A stretch of 64,000 nt of DNA from an uncultured Planctomycetales bacterium (GTDB lineage: Bacteria > Omnitrophota > Gorgyraeia > Zapsychrales > JAHFFX01), in NCBI GenBank assembly GCA_964612665.1, contig CAZTCI010000005.1, positions 175,549 through 239,548 on the forward strand, given 5' to 3'. The notes below the pieces were generated by a model. That model saw nothing but the letters and a program-made list of their open reading frames with translations, made no database searches and had not been told where the DNA came from. Below are positions 2,525-45,710 of this stretch, in pieces. Numbering within the stretch: the stretch's first letter is position 1; the number at the start of each line of letters is the position of its first letter. The translations under genes were made by a program, and so were the position numbers.

Positions 2525-4201
2525 ATGTTAGCTGATCTCAAAGATCAACTCAAAATTCTTACACAACAATCCATCAAAGATCTTTATCCGCAGATCGACG
2601 GAGCTTTAACAATAACTCTAGACATCCCGAGTGATAAAAAGTTCGGGGAATATTCGACTAATGTTGCCATGCGCATGGCGGGAATGCTCAAGAAAAATCC
2701 TCTGGAGCTTGCCGGAGCTTTAAGTGAAGCTTTAAGAAAAGACATTCAAGCGACGTCTTTAAACGATAAAATTTCAAAAATAGAAGCAGTTAAGCCTGGG
2801 TTTATAAATTTTTATTTATCAGCCCAGGCCTCTTTTTTGATTTTGGAGGAAGCGTTAAAGGAAGGTAAAGGATTTGGCCGCTTGAAGGCAGGGCAAGGAC
2901 AAAAAGTTCAGATTGAATTTGTGAGCGCTAACCCGACGGGACCTTTGAGTGTCGCTCACGCGAGGCAGGCGGCGGTTGGTGATGCGTTGGGTAATATTTT
3001 AAAATGTGTCGGATTTGAGGTCACCAAGGAATATTACATTAACGATGAAGGGAATCAGATTAATATTCTCGGGCGTTCAATTGAATTGCGGGCGCGGGAG
3101 ATCCTGGGCGAAGCGATTTCATTTCCAGAAGAAGGGTATCAAGGCGATTATATCCGGGATATGGCGCGGATTTTTATGGAACAAAATCACGTGAGCACAC
3201 TTGAAGATCTCAAACAAAAATCAACCGAGGCGTTTCGGCAATTTGGCGTTGATTATTTATTGAACGTGATCCGTCGGGAATTAACCGACTTTGGCGTCCA
3301 TTTTGATGTATGGTCGAGTCAAGCCAAAATCGCGACGAATGAGGCGATTGAAAATGTTTTAACCTTGTTGCGCCAGCGCGGGTTTATTTATGATCAGGAT
3401 GGCGCGGTGTGGTTTAAATCAACCGCGTTGGGGGATGATAAAGACCGCGTTGTTAAGAAAAGCGATGGAAGTTACACGTATTTAACGCCGGATATTGTTT
3501 ATCATCGCACTAAGTTTGAACGCGGTTTTAATAAAGTCATCAACATTTGGGGGCCGGATCATCATGGATATATTCCTCGCTTAAAAGCGGCGGCCGGGGC
3601 TTTAGGGTATGAACGGGATAATTTGGAAGTTCTAATTGTGCAGCTGGCGACGATCTTTCGCGACGGCCAGCCGCTTTCGATGTCAACCCGCCGAGGACAA
3701 TATATTAGTTTGCAGGAAGTGATGGATGAAGTGGGCGTGGATGCGGCACGGTTTTTCTTTTTGATGCGTCATATCAACGCGCATTTGGAATTTGATTTGG
3801 AATTAGCCAAAAAAGAAACGTCCGAAAATCCTGTATACTATGTTCAATACGCGCACGCGCGGATTTGTAGTATTCTGCGTTTAGCTGAAGAATCTCGATT
3901 AACGCCGCAGCTTAAGAATTTTTCCAGGCTCAAGGAAGAGGAAGAACTTAACTTAATCAAAAAGGTCAGTCATTTTCCTGAAATTTTGCTCGTGTGTTAT
4001 TACCAATTGGACCCGTTTGCTCTTGTCCTTTACCTTCAAGAATTGGCGACGGTCTTTCATAAATTCTACGACCATCACCGGGTGCTGGATGAGGCTGACC
4101 GCCATCTTTCCGCCGAGCGCTTGGGGCTGATTAAAGCCGCGCAAGTTGTTCTCCACAACGGCTTGACCCTCTTAGGTGTCAAGGCGCCTGAAAAAATGTA
4201 G
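2525..4201 (+). CDS. argS: arginine--tRNA ligase
   Basis: 558 aa. Class I HIGH region SANPTGPLSVAHAR. The C-terminal DALR anticodon-binding region ...YVQYAHARICSILR is typical of ArgS. Confidence 0.9.
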   Translation: MLADLKDQLKILTQQSIKDLYPQIDGALTITLDIPSDKKFGEYSTNVAMRMAGMLKKNPLELAGALSEALRKDIQATSLNDKISKIEAVKPGFINFYLSAQASFLILEEALKEGKGFGRLKAGQGQKVQIEFVSANPTGPLSVAHARQAAVGDALGNILKCVGFEVTKEYYINDEGNQINILGRSIELRAREILGEAISFPEEGYQGDYIRDMARIFMEQNHVSTLEDLKQKSTEAFRQFGVDYLLNVIRRELTDFGVHFDVWSSQAKIATNEAIENVLTLLRQRGFIYDQDGAVWFKSTALGDDKDRVVKKSDGSYTYLTPDIVYHRTKFERGFNKVINIWGPDHHGYIPRLKAAAGALGYERDNLEVLIVQLATIFRDGQPLSMSTRRGQYISLQEVMDEVGVDAARFFFLMRHINAHLEFDLELAKKETSENPVYYVQYAHARICSILRLAEESRLTPQLKNFSRLKEEEELNLIKKVSHFPEILLVCYYQLDPFALVLYLQELATVFHKFYDHHRVLDEADRHLSAERLGLIKAAQVVLHNGLTLLGVKAPEKM

Positions 4202-8336: not shown

Positions 8337-8357
8337 TTTTAAAGAAGAAAAAACGCT

Positions 8358-8393: not shown

Positions 8394-8413
8394 GCCGTGT
8401 CTTTCGGCCAATC

Positions 8414-10274: not shown

Positions 10275-10311
10275 GGGCCGGGCCCGGTGATTCCAATTCA
10301 GGGCCCGGCCC
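10275..10311. terminator. GC-rich hairpin (GGGCCGGGCCC / GGGCCCGGCCC, 11-bp stem)
   Basis: Perfect 11-bp stem with a 15-nt loop. A-rich 5' flank (ATAAAAATCAAGAC), no 3' T-run. Confidence 0.4.
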
Positions 10312-18707: not shown

Positions 18708-18797
18708 GCGATTAGAATAAAACAGTTATCGTTGGGGTTCATTGTAGCAAGAAGGGGAGGAAAAACAATTGGGAAATAAAAAACGTACGGAAAGCGC

Positions 18798-18848
18798 CGG
18801 GCGGCCCTGCATTAACGCAGCGTCGCAGGGCCGCCCGCGGTTTTTTTT
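18798..18848. terminator. strong intrinsic terminator (13-bp GC stem CGGGCGGCCCTGC / GCAGGGCCGCCCG plus T8) just downstream of dus
   Basis: Perfect 13-bp stem with a 15-nt loop. TTTTTTTT at 18841-18848 on the plus strand. On the minus strand there is an A-run before and a U-rich tract after, so it can act bidirectionally. Confidence 0.6.
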
Positions 18849-23856: not shown

Positions 23857-23944
23857 GCCATCGAAAAGGTGTTTTTGTTAGATGGCTCACCCTGAGCGAG
23901 CCCGTTAAGGCGAGTCGAAGGGTTAAAGACGTTTGTTTCTTCGC

Positions 23945-25225
23945 ATGACCAACGCTTCAAAACTCGAAGTCATTCAAAAATTAATTCAAGCCTTAGGTGA
24001 GATTCCTTTTAAAGATATTGAGAAGCTCGAGGCGTTTAAGAGTGAAGCCGACGCTGTTCTAAAAAATTTTGAAGGAGACACTGAGGAATACCGTTATCGT
24101 TTAGGCGCCGCCCGTTTCGCGCCATGGTCAGCGGATGTCAAAGAAACGGAATATGAACGTAATTGGGAATCCGGTGTGGCGGCAATTCTCAGCATTCTGC
24201 GTGAAGTCGCGGCCAACTCGACAATTGTCAGTAAATCTTCTGCAGCTCATCCGACGGATTCTTCCGATAAAGAAGAAAATCTGGACGCTCCTTTAAACGT
24301 TTCTTCCCCGGAGCCAATTCAATCGGCCCCACTTGTAGAAGAACAAAACATAGAACATGATCAAATAGAATCCTCTGTTGAAAAATCTCAAGACTCTTCC
24401 TCGTTAGAAGAATCCGCAACGATTCCTAATCCTGCGGAATCAACCGACAAAACAGTTACGCCGGTTGAAAAGTCAGAGTCTTCCCAGGCAGAACTCTCAG
24501 AACAATCACCACCGCAATCTGCAGGTCTATTTTCAAAACTTAAATCCATTTTTCAAAAAAAAGAACCGGCCACTGTTCAAAAATTTGAGTCGCCTAAACT
24601 TCCTCAAGCAAATCCGCCCGTTGATTCAAACAATAAAGCCTCCGAAGAATTAAATACGCCTTCACCGGAATCATTGGATCCAAAACCGCCTGAATCCGAA
24701 ACCGTAAATGAAACATCGAAAGAAGCGTCTAAGACAGATTTAATGATGGAGGAGGCGCCCGAAACAAAGCTGCCATTACGCAAACAAATTTTAGTTATTC
24801 ATGGTTCCGACGAAGATATGAAAGATAAAGTGGTTGAATTTCTTTCCCAGAATAAATTGGAGGCTGTCTTAGCTCATGACAAAACAAATTACCTCAAACC
24901 TTTGAATCAACTTTTAAGTGAGTATAATGGTATTAGCTACGTGGTGGTATTGTTGTCATTTGATGCATTCAGTTATTTGAAAGACCAGAAAGTCAAAGAT
25001 GCCAAACTTGTGGCTTTGCAAAATGTTGTTTTCGATTTGGGATATATGCTTGGAAAATTTGGCCGCCACAAAGTGTTCGTTCTTTATCAAGAAAAGAAAA
25101 ATTTTGAACTGCCTTCACAATTCTTTGAAGCTCTCTTTATCGTGTATGACAAAAAAGATAAATACCACACTTGGCAAAAAGAATTGTTAAAAACGCTTAC
25201 TGGTCTTTTCTCTTCTCAAGAATAA
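23945..25225 (+). CDS. protein with N-terminal ~90-aa helical domain, ~190-aa S/E/P/K-rich disordered linker and C-terminal TIR-like nucleotide-binding domain (PF10137/COG4271-type), paralog 1
   Basis: C-terminus ILVIHGSDED...YVVVLLSFDAF...ALQNVVFDLGYMLGKFGRHKVFVLY matches my recollection of the TIR-like family core (HG.D...VLLT.DD...RARQNVIFELGYF.GKLGR.RV). First ATG at 23945. The track's TTG at 23933 is an alternative start. Confidence 0.55.
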   Translation: MTNASKLEVIQKLIQALGEIPFKDIEKLEAFKSEADAVLKNFEGDTEEYRYRLGAARFAPWSADVKETEYERNWESGVAAILSILREVAANSTIVSKSSAAHPTDSSDKEENLDAPLNVSSPEPIQSAPLVEEQNIEHDQIESSVEKSQDSSSLEESATIPNPAESTDKTVTPVEKSESSQAELSEQSPPQSAGLFSKLKSIFQKKEPATVQKFESPKLPQANPPVDSNNKASEELNTPSPESLDPKPPESETVNETSKEASKTDLMMEEAPETKLPLRKQILVIHGSDEDMKDKVVEFLSQNKLEAVLAHDKTNYLKPLNQLLSEYNGISYVVVLLSFDAFSYLKDQKVKDAKLVALQNVVFDLGYMLGKFGRHKVFVLYQEKKNFELPSQFFEALFIVYDKKDKYHTWQKELLKTLTGLFSSQE

Positions 25226-25332
25226 GGTTGTTTTAACATTATCAAGGAGAAAAGACCTAGTACTAGACTTTTGCAATGTAAAAGTCAGTAAAGAGCAAGG
25301 ATGTCTTTAACCTTACATAAGGAGCGCTGCTT

Positions 25333-25851
25333 ATGGATAAAGCTGTGACACCGTCGATTACCGTTAGTTTTGACTATAATTTTTGGGAATATATGGATGC
25401 GTGCCGCGTGCACTTTGCTAATAAAGGCGGAAATAAAAAATATGTTTTAGCCGCCGGCGGCGTTTTACTGCTAGGCGTAATTTTATGTGTGGCCTTCGGA
25501 TATTCTTGGTATCGAGCGATATTTATTTACGCTGGCATTCTGATGGAAATTTCCCTCCTGCTTAAATTTTTCCTGAGCGCCAAACGTTATTTTGAAAGCA
25601 ATCCGCGTGCTAAAGAAACACATACGCTCACTTTTTTTGATGAACGGATTCTTTTTAAACTGCAAACCATGACAATTGAACTGAAGTGGACGCAGTATTC
25701 GAGTTTTAGAGAAGATCCTAAATTTTATTTATTGTACTATGGGCCGGAAAGTTTTTTGATTATCCCAAAGCGCGCGTTTAATGCCCAAGACCTTCCACGG
25801 TTTGACCAGCTTTTAAAAAGTAAAATAATTGAAAAGCAGGAAGACGATTGA
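25333..25851 (+). CDS. YcxB-like small membrane protein (2 TM plus C-terminal PH-like domain)
   Basis: 172 aa with two TM helices then ...FYLLYYGPESFLIIPKRAF..., the characteristic YcxB-like tail. TAAGGAG lies before the ATG. Confidence 0.55.
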   Translation: MDKAVTPSITVSFDYNFWEYMDACRVHFANKGGNKKYVLAAGGVLLLGVILCVAFGYSWYRAIFIYAGILMEISLLLKFFLSAKRYFESNPRAKETHTLTFFDERILFKLQTMTIELKWTQYSSFREDPKFYLLYYGPESFLIIPKRAFNAQDLPRFDQLLKSKIIEKQEDD

Positions 25852-27050
25852 TGGCGCCCAAAACGGACACCGAAAAATTCGAAGCGATCCAAAAATTGAT
25901 CGACGCTGCCACTGGTCTGCCTTACCGTGATAAAAAGCAGTTGGATATTTTTCAGAACCATGCGGACGTTGTGTTAACTGAACTTTTTGGGGAAAAAAGC
26001 CATTACCGCCGTGAGTTGGCATCGATTCGTTTTGTGCCGCGTTCGTTTTATTCCAATGAAGAAGATTACCGCGAAAGCTGGCAGACAGGGATTTCAGCGG
26101 TCTTAAAATTTCTTGAAGACCTTAAAAAATCCGAAGGGATCGCTTGGCCGCCTGCTCAATCTATGGTTAATCCTGTTTCATTGCCGCATGATTTAGATTT
26201 ATCTGATGTCCCGCCCAATCCATTTCATACCGATTCGAATCCACCGCCGGAATTGTTTCCAGAAACAAAAAAAAATACTTCGTCTGCAAAAAAAGAACCG
26301 GTTGACTATATCCTGGAAGTCGATTTCGCCCCAGACGGCGATGCTATTAATATCGATGATATGACGCCGGCAAACAGTAAATCTGTTCAAACAGAATCTA
26401 ATGCTTTTATGCCGCCGCCAATGGAAAAAAAACTTCCGGAATTACCGCCCTTAAACGAAGATTCTAAGATCGACAAACTGGAATCAGTCGTTGAGAAAAT
26501 GAAAAACAAAAGGCTGCCTGTAAAAGACCTTGCTGGCGATAGTATGCCTTCGCCGTCAAGGATTTCTGAAAAAGATTTTGCAGATGCGGAATCAACTTAC
26601 CAATCTGTCTATGTCGTTAGCAGCCATGATGAATTATTGGAACAGGAAGTGGTTTCCGTGGGCGAGCGGTTAGGGCTGGATTTGATTGTGGTTAATTTCC
26701 GCAAGGAACCTGAGGCGTCGCTTGATAAACGTTTTGCGTTGTATCCGGCGGTAGGCTTTGCGATCGTAATTATGGGCGCGGATGACCTGGCGCATGCCAA
26801 AGATCAAGGGATGCACGAACCGCGTCTGCGCTGTGCGCAGCACCTTGTTTTCGAATTGGGTTTTCTTTTGGGCAAATTAGGGCGGGAAAGGCTTTTTGTT
26901 TTGTATCCAGACTTTAAAGATTTTGAACTGCCGACGAGTTTCTTTGAACTCATGTATACGCCGTACAAACAAAATGGAAGCTGGCAGTGGGATTTGTTAC
27001 GGCAATTAAAAAAAGCCGGTTACACTGTGGATGCGAATAGGTTATTATAA
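25851..27050 (+). CDS. TIR-like (PF10137-type) domain protein, paralog 2, same tripartite layout
   Basis: The N-terminus is homologous to paralog 1 (EAIQKLIDA...YRRELASIRF). C-terminus VYVVSSHDEL...FAIVIMGADD...CAQHLVFELGFLLGKLGRERLFVLY. Its ATG overlaps the YcxB-like TGA (TGATG). Confidence 0.55.
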   Translation: MAPKTDTEKFEAIQKLIDAATGLPYRDKKQLDIFQNHADVVLTELFGEKSHYRRELASIRFVPRSFYSNEEDYRESWQTGISAVLKFLEDLKKSEGIAWPPAQSMVNPVSLPHDLDLSDVPPNPFHTDSNPPPELFPETKKNTSSAKKEPVDYILEVDFAPDGDAINIDDMTPANSKSVQTESNAFMPPPMEKKLPELPPLNEDSKIDKLESVVEKMKNKRLPVKDLAGDSMPSPSRISEKDFADAESTYQSVYVVSSHDELLEQEVVSVGERLGLDLIVVNFRKEPEASLDKRFALYPAVGFAIVIMGADDLAHAKDQGMHEPRLRCAQHLVFELGFLLGKLGRERLFVLYPDFKDFELPTSFFELMYTPYKQNGSWQWDLLRQLKKAGYTVDANRLL

Positions 27051-30820: not shown

Positions 30821-31257
30821 TTAATAAGTTCAATCTATATTATGAATGTAAATTGACAGGGCCCATTGTTTTTATTCTTTAAAACCCCCCGGGATTTACA
30901 AAACTATAATATATCCTCTCGATTAAAATCCCAAGCATCACAAATTTAAAGTCATATACCGGAACTCAGCCGCTGCGGTCCAAAGGCGTAGACAGCGCCT
31001 GATTAACGCCTGGATCAAAATTCTAACCAAAAAATAACCGTCTGTTGATTATTATGAAGGTGAAGATGGGGATAAATGAAAAGAGAGTGTGTGCTAATTT
31101 CAAAAAAATTTTTTAGAAGCCCAGCAAAAGCAGTATCAGAAATATCTTGATAGTTTGGAAAGAAAATAGTAATGTGAACGCAAATCTAAGCGCTCATTTT
31201 TTTTTCTAAAACCATCCCATACAAATTCCCCTCAATCTCCCTCATTAAGAGGTGACG

Positions 31258-33417
31258 ATGATTCAAAATGAATTGAAACGTTTGCTTAAACTCCATTTTG
31301 GCTTTGATCAGTTCCGTCCGATGCAGGAAGCTATCATTCATCATGTTTTAAACCGCCAGGACACGCTTGTTTTAATGCCGACCGGCGGCGGAAAATCGTT
31401 GTGTTATCAATTGCCGGCGTTAGTTTTCAACGGGCTGACTTTGGTGATTTCGCCATTGATTGCACTCATGAAAGATCAAGTTGATGGATTGAAAGAAAAC
31501 GGAATTCCCGCCGAATTCATTAACAGCAGTTTCTCTTTTTCGGAAATCATGCAGGTCCAGGAAAAAATTAAAGAAGGCCAGGTCAAAATTTTATATCTGG
31601 CGCCGGAACGTTTGGTCTTACCCGGATTTCAAGAATTTTTGCGCAGTATTCCAGTCAGTTTGGTTGCGGTTGATGAAGCGCATTGTATTTCGCAGTGGGG
31701 ACATGATTTTCGTCCGGATTATTTGAATTTAAAAATGCTGCGCGAATTATTTCCTTCCGCGGTCATCATGGCCTTGACCGCGACCGCAACACTTAAAGTC
31801 CGCCACGACATCACAGCACATTTAAATTTATGTCAGCCAAAGACGTTCCTTTCAAGTTTTAACCGCCCGAATCTTCAATATGAAATCCGCTCTAAATCCA
31901 ATGCCTTTGGTGAACTCCTTGAACTTTTACGCCAGCATCAAGACCAACCGACGATCATTTACTGTTTTTCCCGCAACGATACCGAAGTCTTGGCGTCGCG
32001 GTTAAATGCGAACCAGTTTAAGGCGGCGGCGTATCACGCCGGTCTCGATGCCGAAACGCGCACCCGCATTCAGGAGCAGTTTATTCGTGACGAAATTCCA
32101 ATCATGACGGCGACAATCGCGTTCGGCATGGGTATTGATAAGCCGGACATTCGATTGATCGTGCATTATGATCTTCCTAAATCCATTGAAGGTTACTATC
32201 AAGAAACCGGCCGCGCCGGGCGGGATGATTTGCCGGCGGATTGCGTTTTGTTTTATTCCTTTGGCGATAAATTTAAGCAGGAATATTTTATCGAACGCGT
32301 TGAAAATCCAGAAGAACGGGCGCGCGCTCAGAAAAAATTAAATGATGTGATTGCTTTTTGCGAAGGCCAAGCCTGCCGTCGGAAATTTCTTTTAAGCTAT
32401 TTTGGCGAACGTTTCGAAACCGCAAATTGCGGCCGCTGCGATATTTGTACGCGCCCGATGGAAGAATTTGATGCGACCGACATCACGCACAAAGTTTTGG
32501 AATGTGTGCGCGGCGTTGGAGAACGGTTTGGCATTCAGTATGTCATCGATGTCTTACGCGGATCGCAAAATCAGCGCATTATGAATTTCAAACATGACAG
32601 CCTGCCTGTTTTCGGCGCGGGCGCTTTGTTAAGCGTCATGGAACTTAAAGAGATTATAAAGTCATTGATTGAAAAAAATTTTCTCATTAAAACCGCTGAC
32701 GAATATCCAACCTTGGGATTAACTAAACAAGGGCGTTCGTTTTTAGAAACAAATGAAACCGTGACGCTCCTTAAACCCCGCCGGGAAATTAAAGAAAAAC
32801 CGGTTAAAAAATCACCGCGCCTGTTGGGACAACCGTATGACCCAAATCTTTTTGAAGTCTTAAGAACATTACGAAAACATCTGGCCCAGGAACGCGGTGT
32901 TCCGCCGTTTGTGATTTTTCCTGACACCGCGCTTTATCAAATGGCCCATGATCTGCCTCAAACTCCTCAAAGTTTTTTACAAATTACCGGCGTCGGAGAA
33001 AAAAAACTCGAGCAGTTTGGGCAGGCCTTTATCGATGCGATAACGGCTTATGTGAAAGAACATAATATATCGCCTGTTTCTCTGCCACCGATTCTTTCTC
33101 CAGGCTTAACACGAAATTCAACTTATGAAACAACCAAACAGCTGCTTCATGAGAAGTTGTCGCTAGAAGCTATGGCGGCCAAACGCGAATTGTCCGTCGG
33201 AACGATAATCAGTCATCTGGAAAAAATATCAGAGACACACCCAATTGTTGATTTTGAACATCTGAAACCAGAGCTGTCGAGATTTAAGAAAATAGAAATA
33301 GCTTTCGCGCAATCAGGCGGATTGATGTTGAGTCCTGTGAAGTCGAGATTGCCGGAAGATTTTTCGTTTGAAGAACTGCGTCTGGCGCGGATTTTTCTCA
33401 AACCAATTAAAATTTAA
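31258..33417 (+). CDS. recQ: ATP-dependent DNA helicase RecQ (helicase + RQC + HRDC + C-terminal extension)
   Basis: FGFDQFRPMQ, MPTGGGKSLCYQLPA, DEAHCISQWGHDFRPDY and the Zn-binding CGRCDIC cluster. ATG 31258 sits after AAGAGGTGA. An alternative GTG lies at 31252. Confidence 0.9.
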   Translation: MIQNELKRLLKLHFGFDQFRPMQEAIIHHVLNRQDTLVLMPTGGGKSLCYQLPALVFNGLTLVISPLIALMKDQVDGLKENGIPAEFINSSFSFSEIMQVQEKIKEGQVKILYLAPERLVLPGFQEFLRSIPVSLVAVDEAHCISQWGHDFRPDYLNLKMLRELFPSAVIMALTATATLKVRHDITAHLNLCQPKTFLSSFNRPNLQYEIRSKSNAFGELLELLRQHQDQPTIIYCFSRNDTEVLASRLNANQFKAAAYHAGLDAETRTRIQEQFIRDEIPIMTATIAFGMGIDKPDIRLIVHYDLPKSIEGYYQETGRAGRDDLPADCVLFYSFGDKFKQEYFIERVENPEERARAQKKLNDVIAFCEGQACRRKFLLSYFGERFETANCGRCDICTRPMEEFDATDITHKVLECVRGVGERFGIQYVIDVLRGSQNQRIMNFKHDSLPVFGAGALLSVMELKEIIKSLIEKNFLIKTADEYPTLGLTKQGRSFLETNETVTLLKPRREIKEKPVKKSPRLLGQPYDPNLFEVLRTLRKHLAQERGVPPFVIFPDTALYQMAHDLPQTPQSFLQITGVGEKKLEQFGQAFIDAITAYVKEHNISPVSLPPILSPGLTRNSTYETTKQLLHEKLSLEAMAAKRELSVGTIISHLEKISETHPIVDFEHLKPELSRFKKIEIAFAQSGGLMLSPVKSRLPEDFSFEELRLARIFLKPIKI

Positions 33418-33536
33418 ATAGCAATAAGCTTTCAAAATTCTTACAATAATTTGTTCTGTTGCAACATCTGTTCAGCCTGATCCATTCCCAGAAGAAAGAA
33501 TTTTTTTTCAACATATCTTAAAAAGGAGAAATACTG

Positions 33537-34589
33537 ATGAATATCGACGAACAAAAGCTTAATGAGTTTATGGGGAAAGTCGTTGGCGATATTGGTGCCG
33601 CCGCGAGTGCGGTGATGGCGCTGGTCGGCGACCAGCTTGGGCTTTATAAAGCGTTGGACAAAAAGCCGATGACCGCCGAGGAATTGGCCAAAGCGACGAA
33701 AACAAGCGAACGCTATATCCGCGAATGGCTCGGCAACCAAGCGGCCGGCGGTTATGTTCATTACGATAAGAAAACTAAAAAATATTCTCTGACACCTGAA
33801 CAAAGTTTTGCATTAGCGAATGAAGATAGTCCGGTTTTTGTTCAAGGCGCTTTTCAAGTGATCTCGGCGATGTTTAAAGCCCAGCCCAAGCTCGCGCAAA
33901 ATTTTAGAACCGGCAAAGGCATGGCCTGGGGTGAACATGACGAAGCTTTGTTTCATGGTACGGAACGTTTTTTCCGTCCTAATTATAAAGGAAATTTGAT
34001 CGCCTCGTGGATTCCGGCACTGAATGATGTTGAAGCTAAACTCAAAAAAGGCGCGGTCGTGGCGGATGTTGGCTGCGGTTTTGGCTCATCGACGATTTTG
34101 ATGGCTGAAGCTTTTCCTAAATCGAAATTCATTGGATTTGATTTTCATCCCGGTTCAATTGAAAACGCCCGCAAGCGCGCTAAGGATAAAGGGCTCACCA
34201 AGAATATTTCTTTTGAAGTCGCCCGCTCGACGGACTTTCCGGGAAAAGATTATGATCTCGTGACGTATTTCGATTGCCTTCATGACATGGGCGATCCGAA
34301 AGGCGCCGCGCGGCATGTTTTACAGTCGCTCGCCAAAGACGGCACGTGGATGATTGTTGAACCGTTCGCCGGAGATTCGTTTGAAGAAAATCTAAATCCC
34401 GTCGGCCGGGTCTTTTACGCGGCTTCAACGTGTATTTGCGTGCCGGCATCACTCGCCGATAACGGACCGGCGTTAGGCGCGCAAGCCGGAGAAGCGGTCT
34501 TGCGTGATTTGGTTATGGGCGGCGGGTTTACACGTTTCCGTCGGGCAGCGCAGACACCGTTTAATTTGGTGTTGGAAGCAAGACCTTAA
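33537..34589 (+). CDS. class I SAM-dependent methyltransferase with N-terminal winged-helix domain
   Basis: DVGCGFGSSTILMAE (motif I) and an N-terminal wHTH (TAEELAKATKTSERYIREWL), giving an Rv2258c-like architecture. Confidence 0.75.
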   Translation: MNIDEQKLNEFMGKVVGDIGAAASAVMALVGDQLGLYKALDKKPMTAEELAKATKTSERYIREWLGNQAAGGYVHYDKKTKKYSLTPEQSFALANEDSPVFVQGAFQVISAMFKAQPKLAQNFRTGKGMAWGEHDEALFHGTERFFRPNYKGNLIASWIPALNDVEAKLKKGAVVADVGCGFGSSTILMAEAFPKSKFIGFDFHPGSIENARKRAKDKGLTKNISFEVARSTDFPGKDYDLVTYFDCLHDMGDPKGAARHVLQSLAKDGTWMIVEPFAGDSFEENLNPVGRVFYAASTCICVPASLADNGPALGAQAGEAVLRDLVMGGGFTRFRRAAQTPFNLVLEARP

Positions 34590-34676
34590 ATGAATAACCA
34601 ATAACCAAGATAGCAATAACCAAACAATATTCGAGTTCCAATATCCAATCTATTGTTTTAGTCAAGTTGCTCGTTG

Positions 34677-34773
34677 ATCGGTTGCGTAGCTGGAATCGTT
34701 AAACGTCCATGTTTGTCGTCTAAAAAAGGACGAACATCGACCAACAAAAAATGATTCGAGCTACACAACCGAT
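34677..34773 (+). promoter_or_regulatory. imperfect 22-bp inverted repeat (19/22) with 53-nt spacer in the 250-nt lhr leader, preceded by three AATAACCA direct repeats
   Basis: ATCGGTTGCGTAGCTGGAATCG (34677-34698) pairs with TGATTCGAGCTACACAACCGAT (34752-34773). AATAACCA occurs at 34593, 34600 and 34615. Confidence 0.3.
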
Positions 34774-34839
34774 TAACGCTTAACGAAAACGGTAAGCACT
34801 TTTTTTAAAGAATACACGCCATTCTTTCCGGACAAACCC

Positions 34840-37800
34840 ATGTCCCTATCCACCTTTCACCTCATTACTCGAAAATGGTTCGAACAAACCTTTGGTCAAC
34901 CGACCGAAGCTCAAAGCCTTGCCTGGCCGGCGATTAAAAATCAGAAACACACTTTAATCGCTGCTCCGACGGGCAGCGGGAAAACGCTCGCGGCTTTTTA
35001 TGCGGCGATTGATGATTTAGTCGTGAAAGGTCTTAACGGTCACTTGCCTGACCAAACGCAAATCGTTTATGTGTCACCGCTCAAAGCTTTAAGCAACGAC
35101 ATTCAGCGCAATCTGCAGTTTCCTTTGAAAGGCATTGAAGCCGAACTGCAAGCGCAAGGTTATCCAGACGTTCATATTTCCGTTGCTGTGCGCACCGGCG
35201 ATACCACACCTGCTGAACGCCAGAAAATGTTAAAACATCCGCCGCACATATTAGTAACCACACCGGAATCCTTGTATCTTTTATTGACGAGTCATGGCGG
35301 CCGAGAGATGTTGCGCGGCGTGCGTACGGTTATTATCGATGAAATCCATGCCATGATCGATGACAAACGCGGATCGTATTTAGCATTATCCATTGAACGA
35401 CTAGAACATCTAAGCGATTGTCGGTTGCAGCGGATTGGACTTTCCGCGACGCAAAAGCCAATCGATTTAGTCGCCCGTTTTTTGGTTGGTAACAAAAATA
35501 TCAAAGATGGCCAGGCCGATTGCGTTATTGTTGATACAGGACTTCGACGGAAATTGAATATTTCTTTAGAAGTTCCCCAATCACCGCTCAGCGCCATTAT
35601 GAGTAACGAAGTTTGGACCGAAATTTATGAGCGTTTGATTGAACTGATTAATCAGCATCGCACCACACTGATTTTTGTAAACACCCGTCGGCTCGCTGAA
35701 CGTTTGGCCATGGCCTTGGGAGAACGAATGGGCGAAGAACATGTGACCTCGCATCACGGCAGCATGAGTAAAGAACACCGTCACAGTGCGGAACAACGAT
35801 TAAAAGCCGGACACTTGAAAGTTTTGGTTGCAACGGCATCCATGGAGTTAGGCATTGATATTGGTTCAGTTGAATTAGTTGTGCAGTTTTCTTCACCCAA
35901 AAGTATTGCCGCTTTTATTCAGCGCGTCGGGCGAAGCGGGCATTACGTCGGTGGAACGCCCAAAGGCATTTTATTCCCGCTTTCCCGTGATGAACTGGTT
36001 GAATGTGCGGCCATTTTAGACAGTGTCCGGCGCGGCGAACTTGATCACATCACCATGCCCGAAAGTCCAATCGACATTTTAAGTCAACAGATCGTCGCGG
36101 AAGTTGCGGCCGCTGGTGAGTGGGGCGTTGATGATTTGTACACACTTTTTTCAAATGCGTATCCTTATCGTAATTTTTCAAAAGAAAACTTTTTAGAAAT
36201 CATCCACATGGTCAGTGAAGGATTTACAACGCGCCGCGGCCGGCGGGGGACTTATTTGCATTTCGATGCGGTCAACGGACGTTTGCGCGCCCGTCGGGGA
36301 GCGCAGTTAGCGGCGTTGACAAACGGCGGGTCGATTCCAGATATGTTTGATTATGAAGTTGTTTTACAGCCGGAAGGAATTACGGTTGGATCTCTCAACG
36401 AAGACTTTGCTTTAGAATCCATGGCGGGCGATATTTTTACGCTAGGAACGCATTCCTGGCAGTTAATCGGCGTTCAAGGTTTAAAAGTCATGGTCCAAGA
36501 TGCCGCCGGAAAACCGCCCACGGTTCCTTTTTGGTTAGGCGAAGGGCCTGGGCGCAGTGATGAGTTAAGTATTTCGGTCGGTCGGCTGCGCGAAACACTC
36601 AACACGTTGCTAGATCAAGAGCCTCTCCCACAAAATACCGCGGATAAAAACGAATTTTCAATTCACGATAAACAGGCCGTGCGATGGTTGGTTGACGAAG
36701 TTGGATTGGCCCAAGGCGCTGCTGAACAATTAGTGATCTATTTATGGATGGGTAAAATTGGATTAGGCGTCATGCCGACGCAGAAAAATATTATCATGGA
36801 ACGTTTCTTTGATGAAGCCGGTGACATGCATTTGGTCATTCATTCTTTATACGGCAGCCGAATTAACCGCGGCTGGGGTTTGGCGTTACGCAAAAAATTT
36901 TGTCGGAATTTCAATTTTGAATTACAAGCCGCGGCCAATGAAAACAGTATCATTCTGTCCTTGAGTTCTTCTCATAGTTTTCCTCTCGACGATGTTTTTC
37001 GTTATCTGAATTCCAAAATTCTGCGCGAAACGCTGATTCAAGCGATGCTGGATGCGCCGTTATTTGAAATCCGCTGGCGGTGGAACGCCACAAGAGCGCT
37101 CGCCATTTTACGCAACCGAAACGGAAAGCGCGTGCCGCCGTATTTGCAACGCATGCAGGCGGAAGATTTAGTCGCGCAAGTTTTTCCGGACCAAATCGCT
37201 TGTTTTGAAAATATCGAAGGTGAAAGAAAAATCCCAGATCATCCGCTCGTCAACCAAGTGATTCACGATTGTTTGACCGAGGCGATGGATATTGATGGAC
37301 TAGAAAAATTGATCAGTCAGATTGAACGTAAAGAATTGACGTTGATTGCGAAAGATTTACGCGAACCGTCTGTCTTCGCGCAGGAAATCATTAACGCCCG
37401 GCCGTATGCTTTTCTCGATGACACTGAATTCGCCGAGTGGCGGGTGAATGCGGTCCGCAATCGCAGCTGGCTTGATCCTGGTGAAGCCAAGGATTTAAGT
37501 AAACTCGATCCGCAAGCAATTCAAACCGTCAAAGAAGAAGCCTGGCCGCAGTCGCAAAACGCTGATGAACTGCATGACACGTTAATGATTCATGGTTTTA
37601 TAACCGAAGAAGAGGGACGCCTTAATAAGTGGGAGAATTTTTTTGAAGATTTAATCCGGCAAGGCCGGGCGGCGCGATTGCACATCGCTGAAAATCATAT
37701 TTTGTGGATTACGGCTGAACACACGCTGTTATTTGAGTTGATTTATGAAAATAAAGAAATTGTCCCGGCCGTTCACCTTCCTAAATCGATTCAACAAAAA

Positions 37801-39243
37801 ACAAATTCTGCTGAGGACGCGCTGCGCGAAATTATTCGCGGACGTTTGGAAGCGTTGGGACCCGTGACGATTCAAGAACTGGCCATTGCCTCTGGCTTAC
37901 CTGAGGACAAAATTCAATTTGCTCTGCTTACCCTTGAAACCGAAGGTTTTGTTTTTCGCGGTCATTTTACCTCCCCAACCCCCGGGGTTGGGGAGGTGGA
38001 ATGGTGTGAACGGCGTTTACTTCAGCGGATCCACAAATACACAATCGAATCGCTGCGCCAAAGTATTCAGCCCGTCTCCGTGCAGGATTTCATGCGCTTT
38101 CTTTTTCGTTTTCACAAAATGCACGACGACAACGAACAAACCGGCCCGGAGATTTTAAAAAATGTGCTCGAACAATTAGAAGGTTACGAAGCGCCAGCGG
38201 CGGCGTGGGAAACGGATTTGATTCCCGGACGCATGGCTGGCTATGATCCATCGTGGCTTGATGTTTTATGCATGAGCGGCAAGATTGTTTGGGGACGCTT
38301 TAATCTGCCGAAACGTATTTTAGAAAATGGAAAAAAAACCGGTCCGGTTAAAAGCACGCCGATCAGTCTTGTCCCGCGCAGTCATGTAAATTTGTGGCGG
38401 CAGCTGGCGGATCAAAATGGGGAAGAGAGAGAACTAATTTCCGGCGCGCAAAAAATTTTGGAACACCTTAAAATGAACGGCGCGAGTTTTTTCGATGACA
38501 TTGCCGTTCAAACGAAACTTTTAAAAACCCAAGTTGAAGAAGGAATTGCTGAGCTTGTGGCGAACGGTTTGGTTGTCAGCGACAGTTATTCCGGATTGCG
38601 CGCCTTGTTAACTCCGCAGCATAATAAACCTTCAAGCTATCGTTTGCCTAACGACCGCCGACGAGGCAGAGCGCTTTTTGGCATAGATCACGCCGGCCGC
38701 TGGTCGCTTATGCCGCGTTTGCCTGAGAGTGAAAAGGAAGAATTGGCTTATGAACTTTTGGAAGAGCTTGTTTTTGTTTATTTGCGGCGGTGGGGCGTTT
38801 TGTTTAGGTCGATCATGGAAAAAGAATCGTTCGCGCCGCCGTGGCGTGTTTTGGTCAGGGTTTTACGTCGGATGGAATTGCGCGGTGAATTGCGCGGCGG
38901 CCGTTTCGTCGCCCAAGTCAGCGGCGAACAATTCGCACTGCCCGAGACGGTCGATTATTTACGTGACATCCGGCAAAAAACCAAGACCCAAGAACTGATT
39001 TCGATTTCCGCCGTGGACCCTTTGAATCTGCTTGGCATTATTTTGCCCGGTAAACGCGTGGCGAATTTAACATCGAACCGAATTGTCTTTCAAGACGGCG
39101 TTGCGCTGGCAGTTTTGGAAGGGAAAGAAGTTAAATTCTTGAAAGAACTTCCCCCCGCCGAACAATGGCCGGTTGAGAAGGCGCTTATTCGTCGGAAATT
39201 TCCGACGAAGTTGAAGTATTACTTAGGTAAAAATTACATTTAG
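34840..39243 (+). CDS. lhr: Lhr-family large ATP-dependent helicase (DEAD/DEAH core + Lhr C-terminal extension)
   Basis: 1467 aa. AAPTGSGKT (Walker A), DEIH, helicase C motifs VATASMELGID and QRVGRSGH. The long C-terminal region is typical of Lhr-extended proteins. Confidence 0.9.
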   Translation: MSLSTFHLITRKWFEQTFGQPTEAQSLAWPAIKNQKHTLIAAPTGSGKTLAAFYAAIDDLVVKGLNGHLPDQTQIVYVSPLKALSNDIQRNLQFPLKGIEAELQAQGYPDVHISVAVRTGDTTPAERQKMLKHPPHILVTTPESLYLLLTSHGGREMLRGVRTVIIDEIHAMIDDKRGSYLALSIERLEHLSDCRLQRIGLSATQKPIDLVARFLVGNKNIKDGQADCVIVDTGLRRKLNISLEVPQSPLSAIMSNEVWTEIYERLIELINQHRTTLIFVNTRRLAERLAMALGERMGEEHVTSHHGSMSKEHRHSAEQRLKAGHLKVLVATASMELGIDIGSVELVVQFSSPKSIAAFIQRVGRSGHYVGGTPKGILFPLSRDELVECAAILDSVRRGELDHITMPESPIDILSQQIVAEVAAAGEWGVDDLYTLFSNAYPYRNFSKENFLEIIHMVSEGFTTRRGRRGTYLHFDAVNGRLRARRGAQLAALTNGGSIPDMFDYEVVLQPEGITVGSLNEDFALESMAGDIFTLGTHSWQLIGVQGLKVMVQDAAGKPPTVPFWLGEGPGRSDELSISVGRLRETLNTLLDQEPLPQNTADKNEFSIHDKQAVRWLVDEVGLAQGAAEQLVIYLWMGKIGLGVMPTQKNIIMERFFDEAGDMHLVIHSLYGSRINRGWGLALRKKFCRNFNFELQAAANENSIILSLSSSHSFPLDDVFRYLNSKILRETLIQAMLDAPLFEIRWRWNATRALAILRNRNGKRVPPYLQRMQAEDLVAQVFPDQIACFENIEGERKIPDHPLVNQVIHDCLTEAMDIDGLEKLISQIERKELTLIAKDLREPSVFAQEIINARPYAFLDDTEFAEWRVNAVRNRSWLDPGEAKDLSKLDPQAIQTVKEEAWPQSQNADELHDTLMIHGFITEEEGRLNKWENFFEDLIRQGRAARLHIAENHILWITAEHTLLFELIYENKEIVPAVHLPKSIQQKTNSAEDALREIIRGRLEALGPVTIQELAIASGLPEDKIQFALLTLETEGFVFRGHFTSPTPGVGEVEWCERRLLQRIHKYTIESLRQSIQPVSVQDFMRFLFRFHKMHDDNEQTGPEILKNVLEQLEGYEAPAAAWETDLIPGRMAGYDPSWLDVLCMSGKIVWGRFNLPKRILENGKKTGPVKSTPISLVPRSHVNLWRQLADQNGEERELISGAQKILEHLKMNGASFFDDIAVQTKLLKTQVEEGIAELVANGLVVSDSYSGLRALLTPQHNKPSSYRLPNDRRRGRALFGIDHAGRWSLMPRLPESEKEELAYELLEELVFVYLRRWGVLFRSIMEKESFAPPWRVLVRVLRRMELRGELRGGRFVAQVSGEQFALPETVDYLRDIRQKTKTQELISISAVDPLNLLGIILPGKRVANLTSNRIVFQDGVALAVLEGKEVKFLKELPPAEQWPVEKALIRRKFPTKLKYYLGKNYI
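37969..37997. repeat. 29-bp perfect palindrome ACCTCCCCAACC-CCCGG-GGTTGGGGAGGT lying in-frame inside lhr (encodes TSPTPGVGEV)
   Basis: 12-bp arms are exact reverse complements. Member of the same family as 43351-43393 and 45310-45340. Confidence 0.6.
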
Positions 39244-41493: not shown

Positions 41494-41702
41494 ATCTTTC
41501 ACCTAAAGGGAAGTCTTTTTCCAACGCTTGAGGGTTTCCTTTTTAAAATCTTCCCAACGTACACCCTTCGTATCATGAGCTGTTGACTTTTGTTGACTCC
41601 ACGTTAAAAAATTTTCATCTCATTTTAATCCTGCCTTCATGACCTAAATGTTAAAAGATTAGTCTCAACCGGGAAAAATTCCTTGAATTGGAGAGACTAG
41701 TC

Positions 41703-42436
41703 ATGAGTCATCTGTTTGTCGGCACTAGCGCATGGAATTACAAGCATTGGAAAAGTGTCTTCTATCCGCCAGAAATCGCTTCTTCAAACTGGCTGAATTA
41801 TTATGTGAAATACTTTAACAGTGTCGAATTGAACATCACGTTTTACCGGCTGGTGCGCAAAACGACTTTCCAAAATTGGTACAAAAACACACCCAAGAAT
41901 TTTTATTTTGTCGCCAAAGGTTCGCGCTACATCACGCACATTAAAAGATTAAACGCCGTCGGCGCGCCGCTGGATTTGTATTTAAAAAACGCTGCCGGGC
42001 TTAAAGATAAACTTGCCGCTATCTTATGCAGTTCGCGCCTGGTTTCAAAAAAGATGTTAAGCGTCTGAAAAATTTTTTAAGAATGCTTGAGCGCAAAACC
42101 AGGATTCGCCAGGTTTTTGAATTCCGAAATGAAACGTGGTTCGGCGATGAAATTTATACCCTTCTTAAAGAATACAACGCCTGTCTTTGCATCGCTCATT
42201 CCGATCGGCACCCTTGCGTGAAGATTTCAACCGCTGATTTTATTTATTTGCGTTTTCACGGTGGAAATCTTTACAGTTCTAATTATTCAGATGAACAACT
42301 CAAACTCTGGGTGGATGTTGCCAAGGAATTTTCGAAAAAGGATGTATTCGCTTATTTTAATAACGATGCCGAAGGGTTCACGGTTAAGAACGCCTTAAAA
42401 TTTAAAGCACTTTATCTCAACGGAAATTTATCTTAA
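41703..42436 (+). pseudogene. DUF72 (UPF0759) family gene interrupted by a -1 frameshift near 42026
   Basis: The N-terminal half (MSHLFVGTSAWNYKHWK...DKLAAIL) and the C-terminal half (MQFAPGFKKDVKRLKNFL...VFAYFNNDAEG) are both DUF72. They sit in frames 0 and 2 with a 43-nt overlap. The junction ...AAIL/MQFAPGF reproduces the conserved ILFQLPPSF block. Confidence 0.6.
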
Positions 42437-42639: not shown

Positions 42640-43350
42640 ATGAAGCACATTTATTTTGTTGAAGGTCTGTACTGCGCCGCTTGCCGAGAGAAAGTAGAAA
42701 AGGCTTTGAAACTGCATCATGATATTGTGTCCGCCCAAGTTGATTTAAAGAAAAATCAGCTCACGCTTGAGATGAGAAACAACATCGCACTGGCGGAACT
42801 GAACGCCATTCTAAAACCCGTTGGCGATTACAAAATCATCGAACAGCCGCCTCAGCCCATAGTTGCACCGACGAAGATTCAAAACTTCCTGCCGCTCATT
42901 ATTATCTTTACCTTAATTTTAATGTATACCGGGTTTCAACAAGGACGACACGGCTTTAATCTTTTTGAGGCGATGAATGATTTTATGGGCGCGTTTTTTT
43001 TAGTTTTTGGGGCGTTTAAGATCATTAATTGGCGAGGTTTTGTTGAAAGTTATCAGACTTACGACATTCTCGCTAAACGCAGTTTGGTTTACGCCTATCT
43101 TTATCCCTTAATTGAAATGACATTAGGGGCCGCGTATATTTTTCGATTCAATCTTCCCGTCACAAACGCGGTTACTATTTTCATCATGGGCATCGGTAGT
43201 ATTGGCGTCAGTCAGGCGCTTTTATCAAAACGCCGAATTATCTGCGCCTGTTTAGGCGCTGTTTTTAAAATCCCAATGACAACCGTAACCTTGCTTGAAG
43301 ATGTTCTCATGTTCGTTATGGCTTTGGCTATGCTAGTTTTTTATAAATAA
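42640..43350 (+). CDS. fusion of heavy-metal-associated (HMA, CxxC) domain and MauE/DoxX-like 4-TM membrane domain
   Basis: N-terminal MKHIYFVEGLYCAACREKVEKAL is an HMA fold with CAAC. The C-terminal 160 aa has 4 TM helices. Confidence 0.65.
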   Translation: MKHIYFVEGLYCAACREKVEKALKLHHDIVSAQVDLKKNQLTLEMRNNIALAELNAILKPVGDYKIIEQPPQPIVAPTKIQNFLPLIIIFTLILMYTGFQQGRHGFNLFEAMNDFMGAFFLVFGAFKIINWRGFVESYQTYDILAKRSLVYAYLYPLIEMTLGAAYIFRFNLPVTNAVTIFIMGIGSIGVSQALLSKRRIICACLGAVFKIPMTTVTLLEDVLMFVMALAMLVFYK

Positions 43351-43393
43351 ACCTTCCCAACTAACCTCCCCAACCCCGGAGGTTGGGGAGGTT
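43351..43393. repeat. palindromic element: half-site ACCTTCCCAAC + perfect hairpin AACCTCCCCAACC-CCGGA-GGTTGGGGAGGTT, directly after a TAA stop
   Basis: 13-bp arms are exact reverse complements. Same family as the copies at 37969 and 45310. Confidence 0.6.
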
Positions 43394-43545
43394 ACATTAA
43401 ATTCTTTTAATTTTAATCTCATCTTCCTTTAATCCAGCCTTCCTTATACTTTACTTGATGCTCTCTGCTGAAATAAGTTTTAATTTATCTTATTGAAATG
43501 GGTAGGAGCTATAATTTTTTGGGGTATCATTGGATTGGAGAGGAC

Positions 43546-44508
43546 ATGCACAAACACGATATTATCGTCATAGGTGCTTCTTCCGGCGGTGTGGAAGCCC
43601 TTATAAAATTGGTACAACAGTTGCCGAGAGACTTTCCGGCGGCCATATTTATCGTGATGCATGTTTCATCGGAAGGCAGTATGCTTCCGCAAATACTGGG
43701 CCACTCTACTTCCTTACCTGTGGCTCATGTCAAAGACAAAGAAATTATTAAATTTGGTAAAATTTATATTGCGCCTCCGGATAATCATTTATTGATTAGG
43801 AAAAATCACGTGCGTTTAACCCAAGGTTCTAGTGAAAATGGTTTTCGTCCTGCTGTCGACCCGTTGTTCCGTTCTGCGGCGCGTTTCTATCGAGAGCGGG
43901 TGATTGGAATAATTTTGAGTGGATCGCTCGATGACGGAACGCAAGGGTTGATGGCTGTTAAAAGTTGCGGAGGCATAACGATTGTGGAAGATCCCAAGGA
44001 AGCGATCTTTCCCCAAATGCCGGAAAGTGCGCTGAGATATGTCGAAGTAGATTATTGTTTACCCTTATTAAAAATTGGCCCGCTTTTAGTTGAGCTGTCG
44101 CAAAAGAAAGCAGAGGAAAAAATGTCAAAAAAACAACTTCCACAAATTATGGAACCTTTGAATGTAAAAGATAAATCACCGACGGCATTTACGTGTCCTG
44201 ACTGTGGAGGGAGCCTTTGGCAATTAGAGGAGGGAAAATTAATTCGTTTTAAATGCCGCGTAGGCCACGCCTATTCTGTAAAAAGTGTTGTACAAAAACA
44301 TTCTGATACCTTAGACCACGCTCTTTGGGTTGCTTTTCGTACGCTCCAAGAACACGCTCATCTTCTTTCGCGTATTGCAAAGAATAACCGTAACCGTAAT
44401 GAAAAAGAATTAGCGCAGAATTTCGAAAAACGCGCGCAGGAAAAACAAAAATACGCTGACATTATTCGAAAATTTCTCACCAAACCAAAAACCCCTCCAG
44501 CTGCCTAA
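43546..44508 (+). CDS. stand-alone CheB-type methylesterase domain protein (no REC domain) with C-terminal zinc-ribbon/coiled-coil tail
   Basis: GGAGAGG lies before the ATG. IIVIGASSGGVEAL...IFIVMHVS..., the HLLIRKNH and GSLDDGTQG blocks match CheB_methylest. The tail carries CPDCGG...CRVGH. Confidence 0.8.
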   Translation: MHKHDIIVIGASSGGVEALIKLVQQLPRDFPAAIFIVMHVSSEGSMLPQILGHSTSLPVAHVKDKEIIKFGKIYIAPPDNHLLIRKNHVRLTQGSSENGFRPAVDPLFRSAARFYRERVIGIILSGSLDDGTQGLMAVKSCGGITIVEDPKEAIFPQMPESALRYVEVDYCLPLLKIGPLLVELSQKKAEEKMSKKQLPQIMEPLNVKDKSPTAFTCPDCGGSLWQLEEGKLIRFKCRVGHAYSVKSVVQKHSDTLDHALWVAFRTLQEHAHLLSRIAKNNRNRNEKELAQNFEKRAQEKQKYADIIRKFLTKPKTPPAA

Positions 44509-44692: not shown

Positions 44693-45310
44693 ATGAGAAT
44701 GAAAGTCATTGCGTTTAGCGCTCTAATTTTTCTCACCTTCAACAAACATGCCAGCGCCGGGTTCTTAGACAAAATTAACGCGGCGACACAACGATTACAA
44801 CAAGCTTCCCAACAAATGGAACAAACCTCCCAACAAATGCAAAACAGATCTCAAACTTCCCAACCCTCCCAAAATGCCGCTTCGCATGAACTGACCAAAA
44901 CATCTAACCCGATTAAAGGAACCTGGGGCAATCAAATAACCTGCGCTGGCGCCAATAGCGCCACTTGTGCAAACGGCTTGGATGATTATGCCAACTGCAT
45001 GAACCAAACCAAAGGTTATTATTACAGACTTGTCGCCGATAATCTTGAAACCAAACTGAAATCCGGAAATTTTTCAGAACAAGAACAAAAAGACCTTGAA
45101 GTGGATATTGCTTCTGTTAAAGATGCGGTTGACACCGGCCGCGTCAATGATCCGGACCCTCAAAATCCTCAACGCTGGTTCAAACATCTGAGCAAAGAAG
45201 ATCAAATGCAAATCAACGGCACGAACAGCAAATATATGAATGAAGTGCACACTGATTGTGAGTCTCGGTTTGGCGGCATGTCGCGTTACAGTGGCACGGG
45301 CGGAAGATAA
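44693..45310 (+). CDS. secreted Q/S-rich hypothetical protein
   Basis: Signal peptide MRMKVIAFSALIFLTFNKHASA. Low-complexity Q-rich segment, then a Cys-containing globular part. Confidence 0.55.
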   Translation: MRMKVIAFSALIFLTFNKHASAGFLDKINAATQRLQQASQQMEQTSQQMQNRSQTSQPSQNAASHELTKTSNPIKGTWGNQITCAGANSATCANGLDDYANCMNQTKGYYYRLVADNLETKLKSGNFSEQEQKDLEVDIASVKDAVDTGRVNDPDPQNPQRWFKHLSKEDQMQINGTNSKYMNEVHTDCESRFGGMSRYSGTGGR

Positions 45311-45340
45311 ACCTTCCCAACCTCCGGGGTTGGGAAGGTT
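45310..45340. repeat. palindromic element AACCTTCCCAACC-TCCGG-GGTTGGGAAGGTT directly after a TAA stop
   Basis: Perfect 13-bp arms. The TAAACCTTCCCAAC junction is the same as at 43348. Confidence 0.6.
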
Positions 45341-45362: not shown

Positions 45363-45710
45363 ATGAAAAAGATTCAAAGGTACAAAATATTATTATTTAT
45401 ACTTTGTGTTTTAGGAATTTTAACTCTTCGCGTTAATTCGACCACCGCGCAGACAACGCCTACCATGGATGATCTTCTCCGCCGTATTCAAATTTTAGAA
45501 GCCCGCGTCTCGGCGTTGGAACAACGCAATGCCATCGCTTCAACACAAAATTCCGGCCAGCAGACGACGGTATGGACGTGTAAAATCATCGGACGCAAAG
45601 ATACTTTTTACGGCCACGGAGAGACGCAAGGGCTAGCTGAAAGTGATGCCATGGAACAATGCAAGCTAGTCTCGGATGTCTGTAAGATGAAAGAATGCAG
45701 TAAACAATAA
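45363..45710 (+). CDS. small secreted cysteine-containing protein (115 aa), hypothetical
   Basis: AGGAG lies before ATG 45363. Signal peptide ILLFILCVLGILTL, a coiled segment, then four Cys (CKIIG...C..C..C). The track ORF 45240 is an upstream over-extension. Confidence 0.5.
   Translation: MKKIQRYKILLFILCVLGILTLRVNSTTAQTTPTMDDLLRRIQILEARVSALEQRNAIASTQNSGQQTTVWTCKIIGRKDTFYGHGETQGLAESDAMEQCKLVSDVCKMKECSKQ

Follow-up and report, generated by a model that had tools for sequence, protein, structure and literature searches.

How did a perfect 29-bp palindrome come to lie, in frame, inside the intact gene of a DNA-repair helicase? The question is raised by lhr, a gene in a 64-kb stretch of contig CAZTCI010000005.1 (the window, by which the whole stretch analysed is meant), in which positions 37969-37997 belong to the same short repeat family as two intergenic sequences of that stretch. 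The answer that we favor, with a probability of roughly 0.6, is that the palindrome is a genic copy of a short, lineage-specific stem-loop family resembling the repetitive extragenic palindromic (REP) sequences, that it overwrote a wing loop of the protein, and that it is most likely functionless there, in a host that is probably a member of Candidatus Omnitrophota. The arginyl-tRNA synthetase encoded in the window (2525..4201) has its best named matches among metagenome-assembled genomes (MAGs) of Candidatus Omnitrophota, at 59-63% identity. This phylum is usually placed in or near the Planctomycetes-Verrucomicrobia-Chlamydiae (PVC) superphylum. The features on which the argument turns are the following.

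34840..39243, plus strand: lhr, encoding an intact large helicase-related protein of 1467 aa, to which orthologues align over 100% of the length
37951..38009, plus strand: predicted beta-wing coding sequence (strand FVFR, loop, strand EWCE), with the palindrome at the loop tip
37969..37997, unstranded: genic copy (copy 3), C-variant arms, loop CCCGG, Lhr residues 1044-1053
43351..43362, plus strand: solo half-arm (left, T-variant, ACCTTCCCAACT) that follows immediately on the TAA of the open reading frame (ORF) 42640..43350
43363..43393 (palindrome reaching 43362-43394), unstranded: intergenic copy 1, AACCTCCCCAACC CCGGA GGTTGGGGAGGTT, C-variant arms
45310..45340, unstranded: intergenic copy 2, AACCTTCCCAACC TCCGG GGTTGGGAAGGTT, T-variant arms

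The palindrome in lhr and its family

The genic copy reads ACCTCCCCAACCCC-C-GGGGTTGGGGAGGT, a perfect 14+1+14 palindrome with 14-nt arms around one central base, and together with its flanks it forms a pair of 20-nt arms with 90% complementarity. Position 37969 is codon position 1 of ORF 34840..39243(+), as (37969-34840)/3 = 1043, and codons 1044-1053 translate across the palindrome as TSPTPGVGEV. A 29-bp perfect palindrome entered in frame from a first codon position is what an earlier reading of the letters alone (the sequence-only reading) had proposed, and both points hold in a gene that is intact and full-length. Logan contigs of the runs SRR12313477, SRR12313478 and SRR12313479 equal the window at 100% identity, with the lhr palindrome present in two of them (L002 and L014); an assembly artefact is excluded because these independent read sets give the same sequence.

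That the three sequences form one repeat family, also claimed from the letters, is borne out by alignment and by statistics. The units measure 29-33 bp, with arms of 13-14 bp and a loop of 1-5 nt. Copy 3 matches the reverse complement of the copy-1 core (43363-43393) at 28/29 positions, and the single difference, in a loop base, makes its stem longer. Copy 2 departs from copies 1 and 3 by a C to T change in the left arm and a matching G to A change in the right arm, so that the change is compensatory and the palindrome stays perfect. Folded as RNA, copies 1 and 2 reach -26.1 and -23.6 kcal/mol, and the genic copy with its flanks -39.9 kcal/mol (z = -6.0). Over the 64 kb, the 12-mer GGTTGGGRAGGT with at most one mismatch occurs 8 times against 0.29 expected, and CCCAAC-N1-12-GTTGGG 3 times where 0.04 would be expected. 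Only four loci carry perfect inverted repeats whose arms span 12 nt or more and whose spacers do not exceed 8 nt; three of the four are the family copies, and shuffled sequence gives a mean of 0.14. Counts so far above expectation exclude chance. When the three copies were aligned with 40-nt flanks in both orientations, similarity was confined to a core of 29-33 nt; this makes the element a stem-loop on its own rather than one end of something larger, and a larger repeat unit or a miniature transposon was ruled out on the same ground.

Both intergenic copies begin 0-13 nt past a TAA stop, between co-directional ORFs. The first A of copy 2 also closes the TAA (45308-10) of ORF 44693..45310, and the copy ends 22 nt 5' of ORF 45363..45710; copy 1, flanked by ORFs 42640..43350 and 43498..44508, follows a TAA at 43348-50, its full palindrome beginning 13 nt past the stop with the solo half-arm in between. 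The claim that the first two copies abut their stops is accordingly right for copy 2, which even overlaps its stop, but at copy 1 it is the half-arm that abuts. A 14-mer, TAAACCTTCCCAAC, is common to the solo half-arm and the copy-2 junction, that is, to both stop-codon junctions. Truncation of the upstream ORF 42640..43350 by the element was considered and rejected, since in the 236-residue product the MauE match runs to position 127 of the 128-position profile, at residue 233. Also rejected was a TA target-site duplication, as TA...TA frames copy 1 only, with AA...TA at copy 2 and TT...GG at copy 3. A search of Rfam gave no match for the element at the gathering threshold or at E <=1.

The element is free of stops in all six frames, and its peptides are rich in Pro, Gly and Thr (TSPTPGVGEV, PPQPPGLGRL, NLPNPRGWGG). 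That the lhr copy reads through without a stop, which had been put forward as a sign of in-frame colonization, is therefore true but uninformative, because every frame of the element is open.

A separate feature of the C-variant arms (37969-38009 and 43363-43393) is that ACCTCC equals the anti-Shine-Dalgarno core of 16S rRNA and GGAGGT is a perfect Shine-Dalgarno sequence, so that a strong ribosome-binding sequence is sequestered in the stem of each such element. In lhr, GGAGGT is followed 3 nt on by an out-of-frame mini-ORF, ATG-GTG-TGA (38001-38009); in the T-variant of copy 2 the Shine-Dalgarno motif is broken.

Evidence for copies beyond these three comes from the assemblies. Five Logan contigs from the three runs break at copy 1, two left ones ending at 43391 and three right ones starting at 43364, and their other ends differ. 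With the Logan word length, which we take to be k = 31, such de Bruijn breaks imply that a 32-nt core, 43362-43393 (the palindrome itself), is shared with a place having other flanks, and therefore that at least one further identical copy is present in the samples. The assemblies run unbroken through copies 2 and 3, whose exact 31-mers must therefore be unique. Look-ups with proteins from the edges of the window returned short Logan contigs that added no notable sequence. The lhr neighborhoods of four relatives (20-24 kb each) hold no copy of the element, and a protein search with its translations in all frames and variants, aimed at further intragenic copies, gave no match at E <=10.

The loop site in Lhr

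The assignment of the gene itself is secure. Its product carries the Pfam domains DEAD, Helicase_C, WH_Lhr, DEAD_assoc, WH3_Lhr and WH4_Lhr, and thus combines the superfamily 2 (SF2) helicase core, WH_Lhr, DEAD_assoc (domain 4), a winged-helix C-terminal domain and an AlkZ-like end, as expected of an Lhr. Its C-terminal 607 residues match 7LHL, the C-terminal domain of Mycobacterium smegmatis Lhr, both in sequence (E = 5e-31) and in fold (E = 1e-24), with AlkZ/YcaQ glycosylases as the next fold matches. An AlphaFold model of residues 861-1467 (mean predicted local distance difference test score, pLDDT, of 89.4) sets the element residues (184-193 of the fragment) between strands 178-181 (FVFR) and 194-197 (EWCE), directly after three helices that form a winged-helix core, and gives the loop a pLDDT of about 80 against 93-97 nearby. 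The model thus places the peptide at the tip of the beta-wing of a winged-helix module in the C-terminal domain, in keeping with the surface loop that had been guessed.

Whether the element was added to this loop or put in its place is decided by the orthologues. Among the 120 matches listed (the window's own protein and 119 orthologues), the segment that separates G-x-F from EWCERR is hypervariable, with lengths of 6-26 aa; seven residues are found in 47 of the 120, including 36 of the 39 closest (TPDLGIE, TPDLSMT, TPGLGKQ and others), and the window protein alone has ten. The loop is seven residues long in M. smegmatis Lhr (7LHL; AADLSGE) as well, and in each of the four relatives whose DNA was fetched (L005, L006, L012 and L013). 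Where the window has TTT ACC TCC CCA ACC CCC GGG GTT GGG GAG GTG GAA TGG, the closest relative has TTT ACA CCG GAT TTG GGA ATT GAA GAA TGG, and the three others are similar; 21 nt have become 30, a net gain of 9 nt and 3 aa. Because the orthologues already have a seven-residue loop at the same position, the element appears, on this comparison, to have overwritten that loop in a replacement and not a clean insertion. The sequence-only reading had counted a ten-residue insertion, which the alignment corrects to a net gain of three residues. It had also named an equivalent conserved peptide in the orthologues as the observation that would speak against its proposal; the loop is indeed present in them but the peptide is poorly conserved, an outcome close to the one named.

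Two features speak to how the new loop came about. The codons of the palindrome are minor ones within their synonymous sets (CCC 18%, GGG 15%, TCC 17%, GAG 19%), and a near-identical sequence lies 5.4 kb from the element, while no orthologue among the matches listed shares more than 75% identity with lhr. The minor codons and this contrast in identity argue that the palindrome was copied in as a block rather than evolved in place.

As to the relatives themselves, the closest ones lie in very fragmented assemblies (L006, for instance, is contig JADMIO011019993.1 of GCA_016307145.1), and the window shares its gene order around lhr with none of the four. In one of them a small ORF of the Coxiella-named CBU_0592 family stands just 5' of lhr (L005 9640-9885). 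In the window, lhr closes a same-strand row (31252-39243) that starts with RecQ (31252..33417; RQC, HRDC and HTH_40 domains) and continues with a winged-helix methyltransferase (33537..34589), which makes two DNA-repair helicases, RecQ and Lhr, near neighbors.

Known repeats, origin of the copy and alternative readings

Among the closest known systems are the REPs and the REPIN/RAYT systems (Bertels and Rainey 2011, PMC3116915), RAYT being the REP-associated tyrosine transposase. REPs are stem-loops of 20-40 bp. Most lie between unidirectional or convergent genes, less than 20 bp past the end of an ORF, and their ends often provide the stop codon; intragenic REPs are known from several species, many of them in genes that serve replication and repair (uvrABCD, recBCD, helicases), and are commonest in Opitutus terrae, of the PVC superphylum, and in Rickettsia conorii, where they are the RPE-4/6 repeats, equated with CGTC REPs (Di Nocera, De Gregorio and Rocco 2013, PMC3733652). 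The family described here resembles them in its palindromic unit within the 20-40 bp range, with a loop of 4-5 nt, in its position at most 20 bp downstream of ORFs among unidirectional genes, in an element end that coincides with a stop codon, in compensatory stem changes, in lineage specificity and in the occasional in-frame genic copy, which in REPs often falls in replication or repair genes, helicases included. The label REP-like, given earlier from the letters, fits a short stem-loop after stops, and intragenic copies in repair genes have been published for REPs (PMC3733652). The family differs in its stem, which is perfect and 13-14 bp long against 5-13 bp in REPs, in the lack of head-to-head or tail-to-tail dimers and in the lack of a RAYT in the 64-kb window. 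Membership in the described REP superfamilies is defined by a GTAG or CGTC tetranucleotide at one stem end (PMC3733652), and the present family is without such tags, its ends being (T)AACC...GGTT(A), with no GTAG/CTAC or CGTC/GACG at or next to any copy. The family works like a REP and is assigned here to neither tagged superfamily.

Two other comparisons are looser. The Rickettsia palindromic elements (RPE), reportedly described by Ogata and colleagues in 2000, are likewise in-frame palindromic repeats in essential or repair genes that add a surface-exposed peptide and leave the protein unbroken. Classic RPE-1 elements are about 100-150 bp long and add 30-50 aa. The likeness that the sequence-only reading drew to them holds for an in-frame genic palindrome; it is loose in other respects, because the classic RPEs are far larger and contribute tens of residues, whereas the element here measures 29 bp, replaces an existing loop for a net gain of 3 aa, has no sequence relationship to them and resides in a host that is not Rickettsia. 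The small dispersed repeats of cyanobacteria, which Elhai and colleagues are said to have reported in Genome Research in 2008, are similar in being palindromic units of some 20-30 nt, found inside genes and other repeats and having no known transposase, and differ in phylum and sequence.

From these pieces a course of events can be proposed. The usual habitat of the family, as observed for its other copies, is immediately past stop codons, with co-directional genes on either side, where an intergenic copy would probably be co-transcribed with the upstream gene and fold into an RNA hairpin of 13-14 bp; such a hairpin could block 3'-exonucleases and stabilize the mRNA, or the repeats may persist as selfish DNA. 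In lhr, one copy would have replaced, in a single block, the 21 nt coding for the seven-residue tip of the beta-wing, leaving 30 nt and ten residues. Candidate routes by which the family may spread are hairpin-dependent single-strand transposition, as by RAYT, and short-tract gene conversion. The lhr gene would tolerate the copy since the loop is naturally hypervariable, the element is open in any frame, each of its frames gives a turn-friendly peptide, and the surviving event happens to have a length that is a multiple of three. The genic copy is thus probably a tolerated, neutral and recent overwrite of a hypervariable wing loop.

Several observations weigh against this account, besides the missing tags. 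REPs occur in tens to thousands of copies per genome, and the full copies seen directly here number three, all inside 7.4 kb of the 64-kb window; the calculated chance that three uniformly placed points fall within such a span is about 0.04, so that the clustering is mild. The pattern CCTYCCCAACC-N5-GGTTGGGRAGG was scanned exactly against 185,579 species genomes, the metagenomes of the Joint Genome Institute (JGI) and IMG/VR, the source genome lying outside these collections, and returned only three hairpins (in one Actinomycetota MAG and two JGI contigs), with different flanks and judged unrelated; the scan thus yielded no relatives of the family. A Pfam scan of 41 ORFs of the window, each 115 aa or longer, revealed no transposase, RAYT or integrase, and no target-site duplication is consistent across the three copies, which leaves the earlier suggestion of a small mobile element unsupported. 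An empty-site allele that would prove insertion is lacking, the nearest orthologue among the matches listed being 75% identical. Finally, the RNA role proposed for the intergenic copies, which have neither T-runs nor an Rfam family, is purely inferential.

The alternative that survives best, although we consider it unlikely, is a homology-guided capture, in which a copy of the element converted a look-alike TPG(L/V)G loop (ACC CCG GGA TTG GGA) by short-tract gene conversion or template switching, or in which the palindrome was born in lhr by fold-back template switching and then seeded the intergenic copies. TPGVGEV does align with the consensus TP[GD]xxxE and with the loops TPGLGKQ (P0010) and TPGVEKE (P0034), the net change is exactly 9 nt, and the ancestral-type ACC CCG GGA TTG GGA resembles the center and right arm of the element. 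In L012, the source of P0010 and its TPGLGKQ, the site CCGGGATTGGGAA shares 11 of 13 positions with the element and ranks among its three best matches in 24 kb, but the sites of L005, L006 and L013 are unremarkable, with hundreds to thousands of sequence windows scoring higher. The TPG match is moreover partly compositional, because every frame of the element is T/P/G-rich, and the nearest orthologue, at 75% identity, is too distant to give the ancestral loop. The sequence variants, the solo half-arm and the inferred extra copy all argue that the family pre-exists independently of lhr. A more specific version, in which an untagged, transposase-independent Omnitrophota family spreads by short-tract conversion into half-similar sequences, the lhr loop (TPGLG) being a captured proto-site, strikes us as quite improbable; if true, it would be a concrete example of how a REP-like repeat is born or recruited inside coding DNA.

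It is very doubtful, too, that the lhr hairpin is a selected cis-element, be it a translational pause, an RNase target, an internal attenuator or the binding site of a protein that also recognizes the intergenic copies. Its fold is very stable, as given above, the palindrome is perfect, its lone difference from the other copies extends the stem, and its right arm has the perfect Shine-Dalgarno GGAGGT that pairs with ACCTCC of the left arm. Recency, however, explains the perfection equally well, the orthologues have neither structure nor palindrome at the site, and cleavage or termination at this mid-domain position would yield a non-stop mRNA.

It is hardly credible that the copies are ordinary sites (intrinsic terminators or attC-like recombination sites) and that the lhr copy is a chance likeness or an assembly artefact, for although two copies stand directly after stops, as terminators and attC do, and CCCAAC/GTTGGG loosely recalls the integron attC core, RYYYAAC/GTTRRRY, no T-run follows the stems (tails TTACATTAAA, TAACCATTAA and GGAATGGTG), 0 of 3 copies appeared in a terminator-like scan, the 31-bp unit compares with 57-141 bp for attC, its outer core positions are off-consensus, no integrase is found among the window ORFs scanned, and chance and artefact are excluded by the statistics and the independent read sets.

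The palindrome in lhr is thus real and ordinary in kind, intragenic repeats in repair genes having been published before. What the favored reading, a genic REP-like copy over a wing loop, adds is a clean and independently reproduced REP-type palindrome in a DNA-repair helicase of, probably, the candidate phylum Omnitrophota, in whose literature we found no such repeats described. It also suggests that such elements can overwrite a variable loop instead of just adding residues, which bears on how "in-frame insertions" of repeats are scored. What is known of REPs and of Lhr is unaltered by it, and no long-standing question is opened.

Other loci of the window

Several words resembling the left arm of the element lie 450-500 nt 5' of copy 2, within ORF 44693..45310, among them AACTTCCCAACC at 44854 (one mismatch) and AGCTTCCCAACA at 44803. 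They fall in a Ser/Gln-rich N-terminal region, QQASQQMEQTSQQMQNRSQTSQPSQ (window 44780-44880), of a hypothetical protein with a hydrophobic N-terminus that is possibly secreted, and they may be left over from half-elements or arise by coincidence from TCC-CAA (Ser-Gln) codons.

Upstream of copy 1, a DUF72-family gene (41688-42436) is split into overlapping ORFs, 41688..42068 and 42026..42436, both of which are PF01904 in the Logan gene calls; the Pfam scan of the window itself confirmed this domain in ORF 41688..42068. Because the independent assemblies L002 and L014 show the same split, it is no sequencing error but a genuine frameshift or pseudogene.

At 23933-27050, two paralogues (23933..25225 and 25848..27050) with a C-terminal TIR domain of the CAP12/Pycsar-effector type flank a YcxB-like ORF (25333..25851), and the three together possibly form a small cluster for defence against phages.

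Further GC-rich hairpins, again intergenic, form a second set at 8348-8403, 18791-18844 and 10275-10311. The first two have the motif GGGCGGCCC...GGGCCGCCC in common, and the third reads GGGCCGGGCCC...GGGCCCGGCCC; an A-run and a T-run flank 18791-18844, and 8348-8403 has only an A-run upstream. These hairpins look like terminators, possibly bidirectional, or like a small repeat family unrelated to the ACCTCCCCAACC element.

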